The position numbers and the translations under genes are program-made. The notes below the pieces were generated by a model, which saw only the letters and a program-made list of their open reading frames with translations, made no database searches and had not been told where the DNA came from. This document shows positions 123-38,264 of a stretch of DNA of 38,394 nt, piece by piece. Positions within the stretch are counted from its first letter, which is position 1. Each line of letters opens with the position of its first letter. Source of the DNA: a virus (lineage: Duplodnaviria; Caudoviricetes); IMG/VR virus record IMGVR_UViG_3300044976_000003, positions 1 to 38,394 of that record; one strand, given 5' to 3'.

Positions 123-2825
123 CTAATCCTTAATGTTAGTCTTCAATGTAGTAACACTAACACCTAAGGCGTCAGCAACTTCTGCTTGGGTATACCCAGA
201 GGCAAGCATCTGATTAGCACGAGCCTTCTTTGTAGAAGTCATAAGAACTTGTTCTTTAGGTGTAGCTAATTGCTTAACACGTTCTAGATTAGAGTTGTTT
301 AGAATCTGTGTTAGTTGATTGTTACTTAAAGCACCAGCCTGAATGGCTTCCCATTCACGATCCTCTATGTAGATGTCTAACTTAGCGGCCCCTGTTTTAT
401 TACGGGCTTCTGCTAATGATTGTGCAGTAAGCTTCTTAATTTCTTCTTGTGTCATGTTAGGATTAGCTTGCTTCTTTGCGGTTACGGTGGTATTGGAGAT
501 CAACTGGGCTTGTCTTTCCAAAGGGGCATTGCTTTGGGCAAGATTCAATTTAGATTTCAAGGTAGCTGCCTCTTCTTGATACGTAGTCCTAGCTGAATTA
601 TTAACAGGGTTTGGCTTAGTGTTTACCATAGCAAGGCGGGCTTCATTTGCCAGGGCCTTAAGTTTGTTCGAATGGGTAGCATACAGGGTCTCTACAACAG
701 TGCCATCATCAGAGACTAATGCAAATGCATCGGGAGTTTCTGCTAACTTTGTAGACTTACGTTTCTTCGTAATCAACTCACCTTTAGCATTGGTGTATGT
801 TTCTACCCTAGTAGGAGAATACTGTTTCTCTCCAGTACGGGGGTTAATTGGACCTCCGCCTTCAGCTACCCTAGCAGGCTTGTAATCTGGTACCCTAATC
901 TCTGAACCAGCTCGAGAAAGTAACGTTGCTGCACCACCAGCCGTCTTTCCTTCTCCCTTTCCTTGATACTTCTTTCTCAAAGCAGGAATGCCATTATCAA
1001 TAGCTGATTGCTTATAATTCAACTTGTGTTTTTCGGCATCAATTACAACCATCGAATGGCGAACAGCTTGCGCAATTTCATCAAGAGATGCGCCCTTAAT
1101 GGTCATGTCAGTAACAAGATTAGAAATCTTCCCCATCTCCATTTGTGTGCCACTGGGGGTCATTCTTACCATTCCAGGGTAGTCTGGATACTGAGCTTTC
1201 GGGTCAAAGCCCTTCAGTTTTTCAAGAGTGGGGGCTGTTTTTACAAGCTTCCCTGCTGTTTGAGGAATAACAATTACAGTATCGCCATCGAAATCTGCAC
1301 CTGATAGTTTCTCAGCAACTTTGCTATTAATTCCGACAGCATCTTTAGCTCGACCAATTGCTTGCTTTGCAGCGCGATGATTATTGTTCACAACAAGTTC
1401 AGGAATCTCAAAGATACCGCCATGCGGATGTCTGATTAGAACTACCGTCTCGCCATTCCTGTAGTTAGGGGCATAAATTTCAGTTTCCTTCATGTTAGTG
1501 ATAGGTAGAATCACATGATGCGCACTACGTTTCGAAATCGCAGCAGCCTCAAGATGTACGGCGGATGAGTCTACACTATCTGAATACGTTTCCAACAATT
1601 TCTTTCGAACTGTGGGGTTTGTCAAAGCCATGATCTCATCAAATTCTTTACGCTTGTTTTCATATGTGAGATCGAGTTGCGTTTTAATCAATACAGGATG
1701 TTGTTTGGACAACATTTGGGATGAAATAGACTTAGACCATTCTTGCCAATCGCCTTCTTCATTCACAATATTCATTGCTGAAGTAAGTTTATCGTTACCA
1801 TCTTTATCTTTTACAATTATTTGCCGTTTAAGTGAAGCTCCGAAAGGATTCTTTTCATCTATGTTGCCATCGGTGTCCCGCTCCATTTCTTTAAGAACTT
1901 TCATCTTAGGAAATGATTTATCCTTGTTAGTGTTGAACAAGAGATCTACACCATCTGGGAGATCATCCTTGTAAACAGCCATGCCCTTGAGATAGTGCGT
2001 ACCATCAACAGCAATTCTAACTTGGGCATACCTTGACTGACCTAGAGACAAGTCGTCTTTACCAGGCCTGACATAGATAACACCATCTTCTTTAGATCCG
2101 CCATCTTCAGCATAACGAATCCCAACCCGCTTCGAGTCGATAGACATTGGTTTCATCGGAACGAAGTAACTCCGACCTCCATCAGGTGAATATGGGGAGA
2201 TCGATTGAATCTTATTAGGATTCTTAAAGACATCTGAGTATTGGCTGTCTGGACTCCCAAGCACCTTTACCGTGGTGTACTTACCAGGACCGGTTGGCGT
2301 CTTCACATAATGAACCTTGTAGCCTTCAGACTTGCACATTGCAACAGCAGTCTTTAACTTATCGTTGCTAATACCTAGGCCGTTCTCCACGCCTCGCCCG
2401 ATGTCAATATACTCTTTCTCAGCGACCTGGTCCTTCAACATGTTTGCGGTAGTCTTGAGAAGATCATTACGATCTTTCTGACCTGGTTCCAATAGAGCTC
2501 TGACCGACGATTCATTCTTGCCCATCTGGCGACCGATTTCGCTAACGGACATACCTTTGGACTTCAAACGCTCAGCCATAGCAATGTCAGCAGCTTTAGA
2601 TTCATGTTTCGCAATAGACTTCAAAGCTCTTAGATCCGTAGTGGAACTAAGACCCATGCCTTTCGCAATCTCAGGCTCAGACAGGCCTTGCTTCTTCAAC
2701 TTCTCAACTTGGTCAAGAAACGACTTACTTCTTTGTGTGACATCATCCCCTGAGCCCCATGGGTATCTTCCAGAATGCCTAGGGGTTCCATAATGCATCA
2801 GATAGGCTTCTTCTGAAATAATCAC
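123..2825 (-). CDS. Putative single-subunit double-psi-beta-barrel RNA polymerase (YonO/RdRP-like) with N- and C-terminal HTH domains
   Basis: Motifs in the order seen in RdRP/YonO enzymes: EDGVIY, AQVR..LKGM, RHPHG, LSGADFDGD (1281-1295), MGKISN, HSMVVIDAEK. HTH-like segments GLSEPEIAKGMG, GMSVSEIGRQMG and GYTQAEVADALGVS. Confidence 0.8.
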   Translation of the reverse strand: MIISEEAYLMHYGTPRHSGRYPWGSGDDVTQRSKSFLDQVEKLKKQGLSEPEIAKGMGLSSTTDLRALKSIAKHESKAADIAMAERLKSKGMSVSEIGRQMGKNESSVRALLEPGQKDRNDLLKTTANMLKDQVAEKEYIDIGRGVENGLGISNDKLKTAVAMCKSEGYKVHYVKTPTGPGKYTTVKVLGSPDSQYSDVFKNPNKIQSISPYSPDGGRSYFVPMKPMSIDSKRVGIRYAEDGGSKEDGVIYVRPGKDDLSLGQSRYAQVRIAVDGTHYLKGMAVYKDDLPDGVDLLFNTNKDKSFPKMKVLKEMERDTDGNIDEKNPFGASLKRQIIVKDKDGNDKLTSAMNIVNEEGDWQEWSKSISSQMLSKQHPVLIKTQLDLTYENKRKEFDEIMALTNPTVRKKLLETYSDSVDSSAVHLEAAAISKRSAHHVILPITNMKETEIYAPNYRNGETVVLIRHPHGGIFEIPELVVNNNHRAAKQAIGRAKDAVGINSKVAEKLSGADFDGDTVIVIPQTAGKLVKTAPTLEKLKGFDPKAQYPDYPGMVRMTPSGTQMEMGKISNLVTDMTIKGASLDEIAQAVRHSMVVIDAEKHKLNYKQSAIDNGIPALRKKYQGKGEGKTAGGAATLLSRAGSEIRVPDYKPARVAEGGGPINPRTGEKQYSPTRVETYTNAKGELITKKRKSTKLAETPDAFALVSDDGTVVETLYATHSNKLKALANEARLAMVNTKPNPVNNSARTTYQEEAATLKSKLNLAQSNAPLERQAQLISNTTVTAKKQANPNMTQEEIKKLTAQSLAEARNKTGAAKLDIYIEDREWEAIQAGALSNNQLTQILNNSNLERVKQLATPKEQVLMTSTKKARANQMLASGYTQAEVADALGVSVTTLKTNIKD

Positions 2826-3676: not shown

Positions 3677-3702
3677 CATTATAGCATATGTTGCGAACGC
3701 GT
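3677..3702 (-). promoter_or_regulatory. Phage promoter motif copy (variant ACGC-N15-TATAATG)
   Basis: Plus strand cattata-N15-gcgt, upstream of the VRR-NUC/exonuclease/RNAP genes. Confidence 0.6.
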
Positions 3703-3717
3703 GCGGGTATATAAAAA

Positions 3718-14494: not shown

Positions 14495-15195
14495 TCCTCT
14501 AGATCAGGACGGAACTTCAGGACCTCCCGCCGATTAGAATGTCGGCGCCTCCTCTTTCGCGAATGCTCAATATAACCGAGCACTTCTTCGACATAGCTGC
14601 CGCCCATTCGTCTGATCTCGTAGTCAGCTTCCAACTCGTGATTTCGAATATATACAATCTCCAAGTCTTTAGAACCATCTCCGAAACGTTGCAGATTGGT
14701 TATCCCAACAACAAGATCGATCTCTTGCACTACCTCTTCGTTTTCGTTTAGAAGAACATCTTCCTCCTCGTAATATGTGTATGTGATCTTGTCGTATTCT
14801 GGGAACTCGTTCTCAAATTCCAATGTGCTGATAACAAATGGAATCTCTTCGTTACGTGATGCGAGTTCTTCCTCTTCGTTCCAATTCAACTCATCTGGCG
14901 TCTCGTCAATCGGCCCTAGTGTCTCAGGCATGATTATACCATTCTCGTCGTAATGCTCAAGGAGATTCTCGTTCATCTCCTTCTCGACCTTGATCTTGGT
15001 TGCTACCCACCGATTGTAATGATTCGCTTTCTCAATCTCTTCTGCGAGATTAGCGTTGTAATGCTTCTCATACTTCTTTGCCACCTGCTTCTTCGTAACA
15101 ATATACGAGAGCATACCTCCAGCAATAAATGAACTAGCAGAGGCAGCAATGACAAACGCGACATCATTATCAATAAGAGCTCTAAATCTTGTCAT
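14491..15195 (-). CDS. Acidic protein with an N-terminal transmembrane helix
   Basis: Hydrophobic N-terminal segment, Glu-rich body and an Arg-rich patch near the C-terminus. Confidence 0.8.
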   Translation of the reverse strand: MTRFRALIDNDVAFVIAASASSFIAGGMLSYIVTKKQVAKKYEKHYNANLAEEIEKANHYNRWVATKIKVEKEMNENLLEHYDENGIIMPETLGPIDETPDELNWNEEEELASRNEEIPFVISTLEFENEFPEYDKITYTYYEEEDVLLNENEEVVQEIDLVVGITNLQRFGDGSKDLEIVYIRNHELEADYEIRRMGGSYVEEVLGYIEHSRKRRRRHSNRREVLKFRPDLEE

Positions 15196-16084
15196 AAATC
15201 ACTCCATCCACATTGAAGTCAAGCCAAATACCGCCCTCATGGCCTGTCATGAAATCTCGAATACGATTGCTATTGCCTAGAAATACTCCGAAATCGACGT
15301 AATTATCACCCGAAGCATCCATCACCCAACCGACAACCGCCCCAGCTCGAGACCTAGCCATCCCGAGCATGTCATAGACCTCGTTCAGGAAAATATGTCC
15401 ACGAGTATGAAGCAAATCATTAGCGTGATTCTGTTGGGCCTTCAAGAATATGGAGTTGTATTGCGAATCCGATGACCACGAGGTGTGGCTACGATCGAAG
15501 AACCGAGCATAGATCGAATATGGCCCTGGATTTGCTCTGAGTTCTGTCGCCTCTTCCGAACCAAGTGCAGTAATCTTAGAGAACGTATGCTCTTTGGAGC
15601 CATAGCGCATCTGCGAATCAGCTTCTTCGCCATACGCGTCAATGACATTCCGTCGATACGCCTTGAACCCTTGGTCGAGAGCAGAATATGCCGCGGTCAG
15701 GGCAAGATTACGCTTAACAAGGATACGATGCGAGCCTGTCAACGCCGCGATTGTCAGAATACCAATACCAACGGCGGGAGCATAAAGCTTCGTCAGGCTG
15801 ACTGCCGTCCTTGTGTAAACGATCAGAACGTCTTTCTTGTAGTCCTGCTCTGTGTATTGCTCGATCTCGAGCGACCTGACAGTTTTTGCCTTGTTGAGAT
15901 CGGCCTGGGCCTCATCCAGCACAGCCTCAACCTTCAGAGTTGCATGGCTAGCGACAACTGCGGTCGCGACAACACCAACAACCCCGGCAGCAAACAGGAT
16001 AGTAGGAGAATGCTTAGACGCATGAAGGAGCGCCCGTCCTGTTCTGGCCGTAACGGCGTTTGGAATATACTTGACTAGTGACAT
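15182..16084 (-). CDS. Membrane protein (DUF6353-like), paralog of 18796-19551
   Basis: SPTIL.AAGVVG, LYAPAV, L.AAYSAL..F..Y, FLNEVYDMLG..GW. Confidence 0.75.
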   Translation of the reverse strand: MSLVKYIPNAVTARTGRALLHASKHSPTILFAAGVVGVVATAVVASHATLKVEAVLDEAQADLNKAKTVRSLEIEQYTEQDYKKDVLIVYTRTAVSLTKLYAPAVGIGILTIAALTGSHRILVKRNLALTAAYSALDQGFKAYRRNVIDAYGEEADSQMRYGSKEHTFSKITALGSEEATELRANPGPYSIYARFFDRSHTSWSSDSQYNSIFLKAQQNHANDLLHTRGHIFLNEVYDMLGMARSRAGAVVGWVMDASGDNYVDFGVFLGNSNRIRDFMTGHEGGIWLDFNVDGVIYDKI

Positions 16085-18795: not shown

Positions 18796-19551
18796 CTAAT
18801 AGTACCCCCTGATGGGAAAGGTAGAATACTCTATGGATATACAAGGTCGGTTGTCCTCAGACATACAAGCCGTGAATTTCAGCTCAAGGAGATCGTCTGA
18901 ATTCCAGCCTACTTCGCTAGAATATGCCGTAGGTTTAAGGCCGATCATCTCGTAGAATTCATGCAAAGAAGCATACGTATTGTTGATTATCATGTGGTTT
19001 AGATCATTTTGAGCCTTGCGCAAAGACTCCATATCAGACTCGAAATATCGTCCTGACATCGAATCGAAGCAAAGTACAGTGCCCGTACCAGTAACGAGTA
19101 CTTCTTTTGTGGATACTGGATTCTTTCGCACCCTATCCGAGGCGATTTCATCCCGAATCTCGATTGCCTTCTTCTCCCCAAGACGCTCGACAATCTTGTC
19201 TTTGTACTCCGAGAAGGCTCGCTCAGAAAGGGTGTAGGCAGTGGCAATAGCGGCTGCCCTGCGGGTGCCGATACGGTTCGCAGCGATGATACAGACGATG
19301 GTCATAACACCAGTACCAACTGCTGGAATATATAGCTGCCATACAAGTTCTACCTTATCCTTAGGCGTTAGGTCTATAGGCTCAACAATATCATTCTCAA
19401 GTTGACTAATAATATCAGAAGCTTTGAATGATGCCTTAGCTGTAAGGACGGCCGTAGTCACCGTACCGGTAACGCCAACAGCAGTTAGAATAAGCGGGGA
19501 ATTATCTCCTACAAGTTTTACGGCTTTGTGGAATAATCCGTTTAGATTCAT
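18796..19551 (-). CDS. Membrane protein (DUF6353-like)
   Basis: SPLILTAVGVTG, LYIPAV, ATAYTL..F..Y, SLHEFYEMIGL..VGW; start re-set to MNLNG. Confidence 0.75.
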   Translation of the reverse strand: MNLNGLFHKAVKLVGDNSPLILTAVGVTGTVTTAVLTAKASFKASDIISQLENDIVEPIDLTPKDKVELVWQLYIPAVGTGVMTIVCIIAANRIGTRRAAAIATAYTLSERAFSEYKDKIVERLGEKKAIEIRDEIASDRVRKNPVSTKEVLVTGTGTVLCFDSMSGRYFESDMESLRKAQNDLNHMIINNTYASLHEFYEMIGLKPTAYSSEVGWNSDDLLELKFTACMSEDNRPCISIEYSTFPIRGYY

Positions 19552-19569
19552 ATAGGTCCTTTGCCATAG

Positions 19570-19640
19570 AAAAGAAAAATAAGAAGGTCGGCCGTTACTT
19601 GCTGGGGGGCAAGTGTCGCCAGAGCTTGCGCTCTCCTTCT
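19570..19640 (-). ncRNA. Putative small structured RNA 1 (GNRA hairpin plus C-rich-loop hairpin)
   Basis: Own promoter; stems AGAAGG/CCTTCT, AGAGC-GCAA-GCTCT and ACTTGC-CCCCCA-GCAAGT; U-rich tail; no ORF. Confidence 0.55.
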
Positions 19641-19666
19641 CATTATAGGCCATGTAATTCCTGCGA
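19641..19666 (-). promoter_or_regulatory. Phage promoter motif TCGC-N15-TATAATG
   Basis: Identical to the 19780 copy over about 30 bp. Confidence 0.75.
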
Positions 19667-19670
19667 AGTG

Positions 19671-19779
19671 AAAAAGAAAATACCGCGTCTTAGCATCGTT
19701 TACTGGCCTGCATCTATTCCAAGATACATATCTGTTGCTACTGTTTACTGGGATGTTCCGTTCCCAAACAGTATCTTCT
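19671..19779 (-). ncRNA. Putative small structured RNA 2
   Basis: Own promoter; TACTGTTT-GGGA..TCCC-AGT-AAACAGTA stem; CCAGTAAAC present twice; U-rich tail; no RBS-led ORF. Confidence 0.5.
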
Positions 19780-19805
19780 CATTATAGGCCATGTAATTCC
19801 TGCGA
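19780..19805 (-). promoter_or_regulatory. Phage promoter motif TCGC-N15-TATAATG
   Basis: cattata ggccatgtaattcct gcga. Confidence 0.75.
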
Positions 19806-19809
19806 ATTC

Positions 19810-19834
19810 AAAACCTATACCCGAAGGTATAGGC
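19810..19834 (-). terminator. Hairpin family C variant with a UUCG tetraloop
   Basis: CCTATACCTTCGGGTATAGGTTTT on the minus strand. Confidence 0.7.
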
Positions 19835-19841
19835 CCGAGAA

Positions 19842-20865: not shown

Positions 20866-20910
20866 AAAACACTTTGTGGAAAAAATCCCCCCGGAGAAAT
20901 TTTTGGATTG

Positions 20911-27822: not shown

Positions 27823-28196
27823 TACTTAGTCACCTCCTTCCACGCCTCATTAACGATTCGATCAAATATAGGTCTTAGAGCCGGGTTGATGTAATCTCGT
27901 CCCTGAACATAACCACCAGTGCCAGTTCCATGACCATATTGGAGAAGAATAGCAATAGGGCGACCGTTAACCACATTAGTATTACTCCAAATGATTGCGT
28001 ATGTTGATGGCGTTGCTTCCAGCTCGTACGTCCATGACGATGCGGTTTCACCAGTATCTTCCGGAGTAGCGGAAGACAATGCGCGCACACCTTCTTGACC
28101 ATATCGACCGAGAGTTCGGAAAATCTCGCCAGACGCCATACGTTTAAGGAATTGTTCGGTCCTTTCAGTACTTCCAGAAGCGTCCATGGTAATCAT
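27822..28196 (-). CDS. HK97-gp10-like tail/neck protein
   Basis: ATP.DTG.TASSW, LQYGHGT and DYINPAL motifs. Confidence 0.75.
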   Translation of the reverse strand: MITMDASGSTERTEQFLKRMASGEIFRTLGRYGQEGVRALSSATPEDTGETASSWTYELEATPSTYAIIWSNTNVVNGRPIAILLQYGHGTGTGGYVQGRDYINPALRPIFDRIVNEAWKEVTK

Positions 28197-29017
28197 TACA
28201 CAACCTCCAAAGTATAAAGCCCAGCAACCGTGGTTGCTACTAATCTTGTCGAAGGAAGCGCATAGAAGATCCCAGGATACCTAATCTCAGTCAAATCCCC
28301 CTGACCATCAACCAAGTCTGCAATCCCAGTAACGGAATCAGGAACAATAAGTTTTGGATCCCAATACAGAACCAAGCCTAAAAGTTGGCCAAGCGTAGGA
28401 AGTCGGGGATTGGTATCATCTGTCCCATATAGAATCTCTTCTAGTCCAGCTAGCAGATCCTCCCTAATTTGGGTAGAATCTAAAATTATATGAGCAGTTG
28501 GCCGATGCTTGTAAGCTGATGTTTCCGGAACTCCTGAAATTAGCCAGGTGAAATCAATGGGCTCAGGAGATTCACTCCCATTTTGATAGGTTACTGGATC
28601 TTCTGTGGCGGTTAGATTGTAAAGAAGATGTATCTTATACCCGTGATCTACACCTTCTAATTCGCTACCGATTACCGTGCGATAGGACAACCCGAACTGC
28701 TTGGCATTCTGATCGTCGGCGAATAGACCGTCTCCCAACTCGCTGATGCCTTCGAATCCAAGAAATTCATCGGGATAGGTATACGCCGTAAGCTGAGCTG
28801 TGTAATCGCCAATGTTGTAACTATCAAGATACTTTACACCATCGAAGTAATGCGGATTAGAACCTTCGCCAGCAAAGTTCTCCTCTACAGACGTAAGACC
28901 ATTCCATGCTACCCCATTGCTATACTCGCCTTCTTGATCTGGAAGGTATAGAACACCTCGATCAATGCCAGTCTCGTAAAGCCTTTCGTCGATCTTGTCC
29001 CATTGGAGTTTGGCCAT
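28196..29017 (-). CDS. Major-tail-protein paralog (minor tube-like protein)
   Basis: L.WD...ER.YETG.DRGVLY, WNGL, FGLSYRT, IHL.YN, shared with 33450-34103, plus a C-terminal extension. Confidence 0.8.
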   Translation of the reverse strand: MAKLQWDKIDERLYETGIDRGVLYLPDQEGEYSNGVAWNGLTSVEENFAGEGSNPHYFDGVKYLDSYNIGDYTAQLTAYTYPDEFLGFEGISELGDGLFADDQNAKQFGLSYRTVIGSELEGVDHGYKIHLLYNLTATEDPVTYQNGSESPEPIDFTWLISGVPETSAYKHRPTAHIILDSTQIREDLLAGLEEILYGTDDTNPRLPTLGQLLGLVLYWDPKLIVPDSVTGIADLVDGQGDLTEIRYPGIFYALPSTRLVATTVAGLYTLEVV

Positions 29018-32072: not shown

Positions 32073-32870
32073 CTACTCCAATCTGTAAAGACCATCAATA
32101 GGCATGGACTTTAAACGGGTGCTTTGAAGGGCACGATTAATTCCTGAAATCTGGGTGGTATATAAATCTCCCACCCCAGGAGTCAGATCTGCAAGGCCAG
32201 TTAGACTTTGCGGTATAATGAGCAGAGGCGCCCATTTCTGAATCAAGTCCAACAATTCACCTATTAACGGAAGTCTTGCTGTCGTATCGTTCGTCCCATA
32301 GATAATCTTCTCAAGTTCTATTAGAATATCAGGATTAAGCTTAGACGAATCAAGAATATAATGAGCAGTAGGACGGTAGTTATAGCCAATTGTTGGAGTG
32401 GCATCAATCTGGTAAGTGAATGGTTCTGCCGTTGATGAATCATTGATTGTTGGGTAACTCTTTCCAGAAGACGTAGCGAGAATATTGTAAACCAGATGAA
32501 TCTTGTATCCTAGATTATCCCCGATAAACGTCCGATAGGACAACCCAAATCGAATATGGGGCTGTCTTGTTAGTATCACACCTGGCGTAATCGGGGCCTC
32601 GCCGAGAGCCATAGATAGCTGTCTCGGTATTGAGTAAGCTGAGATAGTGGCCTGGTAATTTCGAGGTTCAACAGTGTCCAAATACTTAACACCATCGAAA
32701 TGATAAGATGACGAATCTCCTCCAACAGAGGACTCATCAACGTTAACTAGACCATTCCACACGACCCCATTATCATACACATCCGGCTGGACTGGAGAGT
32801 AGAAGACACCTCGGTCAACGCCATACTCAATTCGCTTCTGACCTTCTTGATGCCAGATTAGCTTTGCCAT
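32073..32870 (-). CDS. Major-tail-protein paralog
   Basis: E.GVDRGV.Y, WNGL, FDGVKYL, FGLSYRT, KIHLVYN, RPTAH, plus a C-terminal extension like 28196-29017. Confidence 0.8.
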   Translation of the reverse strand: MAKLIWHQEGQKRIEYGVDRGVFYSPVQPDVYDNGVVWNGLVNVDESSVGGDSSSYHFDGVKYLDTVEPRNYQATISAYSIPRQLSMALGEAPITPGVILTRQPHIRFGLSYRTFIGDNLGYKIHLVYNILATSSGKSYPTINDSSTAEPFTYQIDATPTIGYNYRPTAHYILDSSKLNPDILIELEKIIYGTNDTTARLPLIGELLDLIQKWAPLLIIPQSLTGLADLTPGVGDLYTTQISGINRALQSTRLKSMPIDGLYRLE

Positions 32871-33449: not shown

Positions 33450-34103
33450 TTACGGGGTTGCAAACATTGTGATGACGGCATCCGGAGATGGCAGTTGCGG
33501 CTCGCCAACCGTATCGCCATACAGAAGCAATTCCAATGCAGCAAGCTTAGTCACATCAGCCTTAGTCGAATCAATCGTCAGAATCGAGGTCGGCTTATAC
33601 CCAGTAACTGGGCTAGGGGTTGTACTGATCTCCCAGCTAAAGGTGATCGCTTCCGGCGAGTCGTTTACCGTGGCGTAAGCCCTCTCTGACGGAGCAGCCG
33701 TTGCTCCATAAACCAGATGCAGCATATACCCGAGCTCCGGGTCGAGATCGTTTCCAATCTTGGTCCGGTAACTCAATCCGAAGGTCTTCCGGTTCTGCTG
33801 TCCTACAGCCAAACCTGGCTCAGGCATCGCAGTACCATCGCATTGCCCAAATTCTTCGGGGTAAGTAAATGCCTCGATCGTGCCACCGAACTCTTCGGCT
33901 GAAATGAGGTTCAGATACTTGATGTTATCGGCGTAGAGGGCCGTAGGCTCAGCGCCAGAAGGTGACTCCGTAACTGCTGTCAGGCCATTCCATGCGAAAC
34001 CTGTATTGTAAGCGCCACTAGCATCCGGGATGTAGAGAACGCCGTGATCAACACCAGTCTCGTAAAGCCGTTCGCCGACTTGGTCCCACGTAAGAGCTGC
34101 CAT
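33450..34103 (-). CDS. Major tail (tube) protein
   Basis: Position after the tail terminator; YADNIKY, EAFTYP and T.NDSPEAI.FSWE motifs. Confidence 0.85.
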   Translation of the reverse strand: MAALTWDQVGERLYETGVDHGVLYIPDASGAYNTGFAWNGLTAVTESPSGAEPTALYADNIKYLNLISAEEFGGTIEAFTYPEEFGQCDGTAMPEPGLAVGQQNRKTFGLSYRTKIGNDLDPELGYMLHLVYGATAAPSERAYATVNDSPEAITFSWEISTTPSPVTGYKPTSILTIDSTKADVTKLAALELLLYGDTVGEPQLPSPDAVITMFATP

Positions 34104-37766: not shown

Positions 37767-38264
37767 TCACCTCCTTCGAATAACCTCTAATGCAGTGCCG
37801 GGCAAATCTGAGACGCGAGTAGAACCGTATGTCTTTATCGTTGCAGACGCATACTTCTGTCCTTCCTTAAGCAGGCCTCCTTCGGAAACAGTCTCCCATT
37901 TGCTCTTGGCGCCTGTTTGCTGGAAACGATCCCACATGTTCTTAGCTTGCCCAGCGTATTTCGATCCAGATGTCTTGAAACTAGGCAAGGAACGAACAGG
38001 AACATTAGCGTGTTTCGCAGTAAGCGAAGCTACGACTGCTGCCCCAATAGCTAACGTAGCAACGCCAGCAACAACCGCGCCACCTTTTGCAGCCTTTCGT
38101 GCTATCCCGCCGCTTCTTGAGACGGCCATTCCCCCAGAACCGACTTCTCGATATAGCGGGTTGGTATCGGAAGGTGGAGCGTTCGCCGAATTGTCAGATT
38201 GTTTCCGCTTACCCCATCGCATTCCTTTAACGCCGAAATGCTCCAAAGATTCGTCATCAAGCAT
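37767..38264 (-). CDS. H(F/Y)GVKGM(R/K)WG-motif protein (DUF7211-like), candidate internal virion protein
   Basis: N-terminal LEHFGVKGMRWG; one hydrophobic helix; located in the head module. Confidence 0.75.
   Translation of the reverse strand: MLDDESLEHFGVKGMRWGKRKQSDNSANAPPSDTNPLYREVGSGGMAVSRSGGIARKAAKGGAVVAGVATLAIGAAVVASLTAKHANVPVRSLPSFKTSGSKYAGQAKNMWDRFQQTGAKSKWETVSEGGLLKEGQKYASATIKTYGSTRVSDLPGTALEVIRRR

Follow-up and report, generated by a model that had tools for sequence, protein, structure and literature searches.

A predicted three-way-junction RNA family in repeated promoter cassettes of a soil-type phage

Background

Phage RNA decoys include pseudo-ToxI repeats, RNA anti-CRISPRs and phage tRNAs that replace cleaved host tRNAs. 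Four described systems are close, in one respect or another, to the locus reported here. The PeSL cassettes of the T4-type phages RB49 and phi1 are described, in the text covered, as combining sigma70-consensus promoters with small-ORF cargo (Arbiol et al. 2010, PMC2839356). The 6C RNA owes its name to the conserved cytosines of its stem-loops, which according to the passages covered are required for activity (Mai et al. 2019, PMC6486639). An HTH-flanked putative RNA polymerase has been predicted in the actinophage/Lactococcus 1706/FP_oengus group, which also includes phages of Firmicutes (Koert et al., bioRxiv 10.1101/842583), and the two-barrel polymerases of phage P23-45 start transcription behind private conserved motifs (bioRxiv 10.1101/2022.12.01.518664; PMC5467207).

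Results and discussion

The phage and the gene next to the RNA

The window, by which we mean the whole stretch of 38,394 nucleotides that was analysed, is a 38.4-kb phage fragment with every gene on the minus strand. It carries portal, protease-capsid fusion, tail, primase-polymerase, helicase and exonuclease genes together with a 900-aa phrog_4291 protein, and belongs to a soil-type phage of the 1706/Pepy6/cluster AM-AU-AW-BI-CC-DJ-EL group. Among cultured phages, those closest to it are phages of Gordonia, Rhodococcus, Streptomyces, Arthrobacter and Microbacterium. Since Firmicutes phages also belong to the group, these actinobacterial relatives alone do not settle the host.

The small RNA of interest, here called RNA B, lies directly ahead of the following gene:

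18796 to 19562, minus strand: DUF6353/phrog_2152 gene (ATG at 19551) with its Shine-Dalgarno sequence (19562-19557), assigned by domain/family match and homologue alignment.

The encoded protein has a best identity of about 53 % to the versions of cultured relatives, and its homologues align from Met 19551. A promoter scan of the window found no promoter belonging to this gene (18796-19551), so part of the transcripts must pass the U tail of RNA B. The gene is one of two DUF6353 paralogues in the window (15182-16084 and 18796-19551), and the major tail protein has three (28196-29017, 32073-32870 and 33450-34103). A CCC(C)GGGG(G) element flanked by A and T runs at about 20880-20905 is found again in distant relatives (L002, L008, L335, L338 and L340), close to where the cassette region starts, and Streptomyces phages (L008, L009, L376 and L377) have a small TCGCC/GGCGA hairpin just 5' of the DUF6353 ribosome-binding site, 10-35 nt before the start codon.

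A repeated promoter heads stem-closed cassettes

Three features make up the region upstream of RNA B:

19640 to 19666, minus strand: promoter B, with TCGCA (19666-19662), ACA (19655-19653) and TATAAT (19647-19642) followed by GA and a predicted +1 at G19641 (repeat scan and logo).
19670 to 19805, minus strand: cassette A, a promoter (TATAAT at 19786-19781) with a 107-nt stem-closed ORF-less element containing two copies of CCAGTAAAC (fold z -3.06).
19810 to 19836, minus strand: terminator-like hairpin and T run directly upstream of promoter A (sequence).

The promoter occurs in the window in 18 same-strand copies with one fixed spacing, and in none on the other strand. We derived a logo from 17 genomes or genome parts, leaving the hexamer free, and obtained TCGCR-N6-ACA-N5-TATAAT-GA with rigid spacing and no -35 box at the sigma70 distance. 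The three blocks lie about 10 bp apart, the spacers being 6 and 5 in 100 of 117 copies. Matches to the sigma70 -35 box reach at most three of six positions in 102 of 104 copies, and the conserved block stands 14 nt from the hexamer. The hexamer is a perfect TATAAT in 79 of 139 copies, about 8 of the 139 looking like chance occurrences. The position equivalent to the sigma70 -11A is less conserved than the T that follows it.

A cassette consists of the repeated promoter, a closing stem that begins on the G right after TATAAT, a variable cargo and a U tail. In the whole-genome stretches of 17 phages, 36 of 126 promoter copies are followed by no protein start; closing stem and U tail are present in 26 of these 36 ORF-less cassettes compared to 5 of the 90 coding ones. 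Counted over all loci, stem and tail are present in 84 of 150 ORF-less and 3 of 196 coding cassettes, in a set that is biased in that one search selected for GAGAAG. A promoter-driven cassette holding a structured small RNA, as the first-pass annotation had proposed for this locus, is supported.

The promoter of cassette A, 139 nt upstream of that of RNA B, is an identical copy within a 32-nt exact repeat, and drives a second ORF-less stem-closed element of which no homologue was found among 122 pattern matches. Cassette A is cleanly missing in the close strains X7 and X4, which keep B, while X1 and X6 cover A. A 676-nt contig from run X7 bridges the identical promoter copies, linking 19635 to 19775, and one X4 read, with 9 loose letters only, places the upstream terminator directly at promoter B. 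An assembly artefact at the 32-nt repeat could conceivably account for the apparent loss.

The 84 stem-closed cassettes fall into 51 crude cargo clusters, among them tRNA-like, repeat-bearing, plain-hairpin and pseudoknot types. Such cassettes are present, unannotated, in cultured Arthrobacter phages, so that start site and function are directly testable; Niktson and DoctorPepper have two or three ORF-less cassettes ahead of their DUF6353 gene.

Several of these cargoes deserve a description of their own. A commoner family, accounting for 19 of the 84, is marked by GACAC and by a distant loop whose last bases are TGG (L010:1553-1640, L012:1592-1675, L011:1510-1640, L202:619-725, L137, L148, L199, L200, L366 and others). 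Four of its loop bases pair as a pseudoknot with compensatory change (CGAA/TTCG, CTAA/TTAG, CGCA/TGCG and CGTA/TACG) in 13 of 16 cases; the 19 members have no Rfam match, and the family is unannotated in the cultured phages Niktson, Qui, DoctorPepper and Pepy6. Degenerate tRNA-like cargoes lie inside the closing stem at L142:631-706, L178:631-702, L257:210-282 and L010:1459-1520, the first three scoring 35-48 bits with the Rfam tRNA model. Other cargoes repeat a 15-30-nt motif two or three times in tandem (L011:90-250 in Qui, L346:10706-10810 in Rickmore, L147, L190 and L206) and are reminiscent, by analogy, of repeat-type antitoxin or decoy RNAs. One locus with a tRNA and two stem-closed cassettes also has a Pistol ribozyme (68 bits, L146:1009-1074).

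RNA B folds into a three-way junction

RNA B and its parts, all on the minus strand, are as follows:

19568 to 19641: RNA B, a three-way-junction small RNA of 61 nt plus a U-rich tail (fold, 13 homologues, pair counts).
19635 to 19641: 5' arm of P1, partner 19587-19581 (5 of 6 modelled P1 pairs changed on both sides).
19621 to 19634: P2 hairpin with GCAA loop (fold, family alignment).
19613 to 19620: 5' strand of the conserved core, with one arm of the GGC helix, the GACA loop strand and the first C of P4 (family alignment).
19598 to 19613: P4 hairpin with CCCCCA loop at 19608-19603 (family alignment).
19588 to 19597: 3' strand of the conserved core, with the HAACG loop strand, GCC and the RA junction (family alignment).
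19568 to 19587: 3' arm of P1 (19587-19581) and U-rich tail (19580-19568), a putative leaky terminator (sequence).

The sequence quoted in the first-pass annotation is found on the minus strand at 19640-19569, and the hairpins described there fold with -26.3 kcal/mol (z -4.14, none of 200 shuffles equally stable); the opposite strand has a fold z of only -1.47. Other details need correction. The closing stem does lie at TATAATG, but its first base is the G of that motif (19641) and not the base after it. The hairpin does carry a C-rich loop, but one C of the run of six is paired. A third helix, GGC/GCC, had been missed and makes the structure a three-way junction with an internal loop. The statement that there is no ORF is literally wrong, as a 34-codon extension, in frame with the gene downstream, starts at ATG 19653 and a frame of 31 codons at ATG 19643. 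Neither frame is conserved, because the spacing from +1 to the core varies across homologues (18, 20, 20, 21, 22 or 23 nt) and the downstream homologues align from Met 19551. The frames differ among homologues, and a small-peptide reading of RNA B was rejected on that ground.

A family supported by compensatory change

We searched for further members with pattern scans of viral and metagenome contigs followed by a covariance model. The pattern scans gave 12 distinct homologues behind the phage promoter and the covariance model one more (L214), 13 in all, which represent perhaps 9-10 independent lineages, all of them uncultured. A covariation check, suggested in the first-pass annotation, was run as pair counts over these 13: in an alignment that was fitted to the structure and contains some close kin, 98.2 % of the cells are paired and 12 of 17 pairs show two-sided, compensatory change. 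Shuffles reached this level of pairing and covariation in 0-1 of 500 cases, and controls with slid partners were 36-52 % paired. The GGC/GCC helix is invariant and so has no covariation support. As a control we took 43 distinct matches to one pattern: all seven that lie behind the phage promoter form P1 and P4, while none of the 36 without the promoter forms P1.

What the family conserves is the A-rich internal loop and the junction. The 5' strand of the core (19613-19620) is unchanged in the 12 pattern-found members, partly by construction of the pattern; in L214 four core loop bases are changed and the A-rich shape is kept. By comparison P2 measures 4-6 bp and is capped by a GNRA loop in 8 of the 13, and both stem length and loop of P4 vary. 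At the position of the window's G19589 all other members, and also strain X4, have an A.

A scan of genome_contigs gave 11 matches, none behind the phage promoter, and BLASTn of RNA B against cultured phages gave promoter-only matches. The core pattern is absent from 12 of 12 records scanned, and the covariance model, run on stretches of nine cultured phages and on another seven neighbourhoods, found no member. One candidate, L341 (20.9 bits), has no promoter and was left out before the pair count; L339, L386, L387 and L389 have neither promoter nor stems and were rejected.

The Rfam scan for a known family that had been suggested came back empty: ribozymes, riboswitches and other families have no match over the motif in the window, in L222 and in 11 further member loci (E up to 5-10). 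In Rfam and the literature, with subscription papers mostly outside the search, we found no description of the RNA family or of stem-closed cassettes. The motif is absent from the four supplementary tables of Fremin et al. 2023 (PMC10690425), whose alignment archives and PDFs lay outside the check and may hold it, and the portion covered of the cluster EL text (PMC7302621) does not mention the repeats. RNA B appears to be a previously uncatalogued RNA family of unproven function.

Transcription probably starts on the G after TATAAT

The +1 base was left free in the search, yet it is paired in 83 of 84 stem-closed cassettes (64 G-C and 19 G-U). In 46 of 84 an A stands opposite -1, position -4 is at background, -2 and -3 show no conditional excess, and the helix does not extend beyond -1. 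The pairing of +1, together with the enrichment of A opposite -1, indicates that the helix starts at +1 or -1. A sigma70-type enzyme leaves the six bases after TATAAT untranscribed, yet it is these six that form the 5' arm of P1. The closing stem covaries across them, for which reason +1 is probably G19641, although the start could lie one base earlier given the A enriched opposite -1. The unusually close start site raised in the first-pass annotation is thereby supported.

The candidate for an enzyme that starts there is encoded in the window itself:

123 to 2825, minus strand: single-chain two-barrel RNA polymerase (GADFDGD) with N- and C-terminal HTH domains (motif, fold and domain matches), the putative promoter reader.

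Its DFDGD motif, an instance of DxDGD, is unchanged in 118 polymerase homologues. An alignment-based fold model (pLDDT 79) has QDE-1 and Thermus phage P74 gp62/gp64 as its top matches (E 1e-8 to 1e-6, at low TM-scores of about 0.3). Transcription from the repeated promoter by this polymerase is likely on grounds of co-occurrence and geometry, and initiation by it at the G is the simplest, and the likely, reading of closing stem and promoter spacing. The N-terminus of the polymerase resembles that of a putative virion protein (37767-38264, minus strand), the two having in common an L-x-H-[YF]-G...R-x(0-2)-W-G motif. This motif is possibly a packaging tag, and the likeness would allow delivery of the polymerase with the DNA.

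Alternatively, a host sigma factor may read the promoter from about +7, the closing stem being present only in upstream read-through transcripts, where it would mark a processing or termination site, or the RNA tail may pair back on the open promoter DNA. Most copies do have a perfect TATAAT that a host sigma factor could read, tandem promoters permit read-through, and P2-P4 still folds without the first six bases (-19 kcal/mol). Yet terminator-like hairpins precede the first cassettes, unrelated cargoes share the exact base on which the stem starts, and the -11A equivalent is lost across whole genomes, being replaced in most copies of G004, G005 and RosaAsantewaa. In addition the 6-7 bp of this stem would make a short RNase III site. 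We regard this alternative as unlikely. Use of the promoter by both phage and host enzymes is possible, and some tRNA-like cargoes (L178 and L142) have an acceptor stem beginning at about +7, the sigma70 start position. The promoter copy before the polymerase operon (3683-3715, minus strand) has an extended -10, with TGC before TATAAT, an extension seen in only 2 of 12 genomes; on sequence grounds it is a possible host-read bootstrap.

A candidate decoy that would act in trans

RNA B has a promoter and an end clamp of its own, its neighbours change, and a small loop beside the junction is invariant; this combination suggests an RNA acting in trans through its shape. We tentatively favour the following reading, which in our estimate falls a little short of an even chance: RNA B is a conserved three-way-junction fold in a swappable cassette; it is likely transcribed early by the phage polymerase from the G after TATAAT, and its action is likely in trans, on a host protein that it binds at the A-rich internal loop. 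The polymerase would start early transcription on the G directly after TATAAT; the closing stem would clamp both RNA ends and serve as terminator stem before the U tail, which would let enough transcription pass to supply the DUF6353 gene. The binding site would be the invariant internal loop next to the junction, and the tips of P2 and P4, including the C loop, an exchangeable scaffold. Protein binding is the mode we infer as most likely. The accessory and rapidly swapped region suggests a host-defence target, and the chances seem evenly divided that the partner is a host defence or RNA-handling protein titrated by RNA B as a decoy, a role proposed by analogy.

An RNA that acts in trans by other chemistry, as a small-molecule sponge, a small ribozyme, or an sRNA with the core as seed and GGC/GCC open, would also account for a short invariant core whose peripheral hairpins are free to vary, and would agree with the lack of covariation in the 3-bp core helix and with a Pistol ribozyme in one related locus. 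The empty Rfam ribozyme and riboswitch scans speak against it, and the altered core loop of L214 fits recognition of shape better than seed pairing; we give this possibility perhaps one chance in several.

A leader acting in cis, whether attenuator, riboswitch or protein-controlled switch, would set read-through into the downstream gene. The next feature 3' of the RNA is a gene in 6 of 13 members, which lie 25-30 nt ahead of a ribosome-binding site with no promoter between, and the small invariant core at the junction has an aptamer-like look. In another 6 of 13, however, the next feature is a promoter, which in three cases leads into another RNA cassette, and in 1 of 13 a separate terminator-like hairpin with T run; in L259 and L308 RNA B is the middle unit of three RNA cassettes. 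The downstream genes are mutually unrelated, and dozens of unrelated cargoes have the same stem and tail. The attenuator leader raised in the first-pass annotation thus fits in so far as the window's downstream gene is read through the cassette, and is weak as the purpose of the family; we consider a cis role improbable.

That RNA B is a decorated terminator or spacer with punctuation as its sole function is very unlikely: the U tail follows a stem, cassettes are gained and lost, and plain hairpins occur among the cargoes, but each cassette has its own promoter and the unpaired core is kept across distant phages at differing genomic positions.

The C-rich loop had suggested likeness to 6C RNA. 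RNA B is not a 6C RNA. The Rfam 6C model (RF01066) has no match at E <= 0.001 in the phage's own genome and, at E <= 10, none in 15-24 kb. RNA B has a single C-rich loop where 6C RNA has conserved ones on adjacent stem-loops, and 10 of 13 homologues have another loop at that place. The C-rich loop is confined to three members (the window, L284 and L288), and the close strain X7 has lost one C of the run. In L284 and L288 the CCCCCA loop sits on a stem that is entirely different, and phage RosaAsantewaa has a near-identical C-loop hairpin atop a terminator, every one of these cases being upstream of DUF6353; the loop may thus have a lineage-specific role tied to that gene. The C-loop hairpin pattern alone matched about 290 stretches, set aside as mostly chance. 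That the loop pairs with G-rich mRNA sites, silencing or mimicking host 6C regulation, is the least probable reading of all in spite of this recurrence, given that a by-eye reading of seven further cultured relatives revealed no such hairpin before DUF6353 and that the few G runs in the phage's own genome offer no convincing target.

Our preferred reading, an RNA that would bind a host protein through its internal loop, can be extended to the whole group. It is conceivable, though doubtful, that the cassettes form a group-wide RNA-expression platform in which a virion-delivered polymerase would start on the G, the first six bases would be a clamp, and any insert between GAGAAG and its complement would be made into a small RNA that is stable and terminates itself. 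The cargo families, dozens in number and including RNA B, the pseudoknotted family, tRNA mimics and repeat RNAs, would then be a swappable RNA anti-defence arsenal, and RNA B would represent a new class of decoys or aptamers. Should the clamp work as we read it, it would offer a natural, minimal scaffold on which stable small RNAs can be made in actinobacteria, and if the cargoes are counter-defence RNAs, the short list of RNA-based phage weapons grows. The stems give a precise predicted start for the group's polymerase, at a base impossible for the host enzyme, and the cassettes are a source of uncatalogued phage small RNAs, with about 50 crude cargo clusters among 84 cassettes, several of them unannotated in cultured phages of teaching collections.

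Comparison with known systems

RNA B shares with 6C RNA its small size, its stem-loops and a C-rich loop, and the closest cultured relatives of its phage have actinobacterial hosts; RNA B differs in its single, non-conserved C loop, its three-way junction and conserved internal loop, and the absence of a model match. With phage RNA decoys, short non-coding RNAs from accessory regions that act on host proteins, the likeness would be one of role only, without a match in sequence or structure.

The 900-aa protein of the window belongs to the family of Koert et al. (phrog_4291), to which the cassettes add a structure-based prediction of the enzyme's start site; the words 'promoter' and 'non-coding' are absent from the text of that work covered here. 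Thermus phage P23-45 gp96/gp64 and SPbeta YonO are likewise phage single-chain two-barrel polymerases, from which the window's enzyme differs in its motifs and in an identity of about 12 %. The accounts of these enzymes, in the text covered, describe no arrays of small-RNA cassettes.

The PeSL cassettes, in the text covered, are also units of repeated promoter and stem-loop in a variable region, gained and lost by recombination between repeats. Unlike PeSL, the window's promoter does not have sigma70-like spacing, and part of the cargo is stem-closed non-coding RNA. The logic of the cassettes is PeSL-like and thus known in kind; the RNA family to which RNA B belongs appears to be new.
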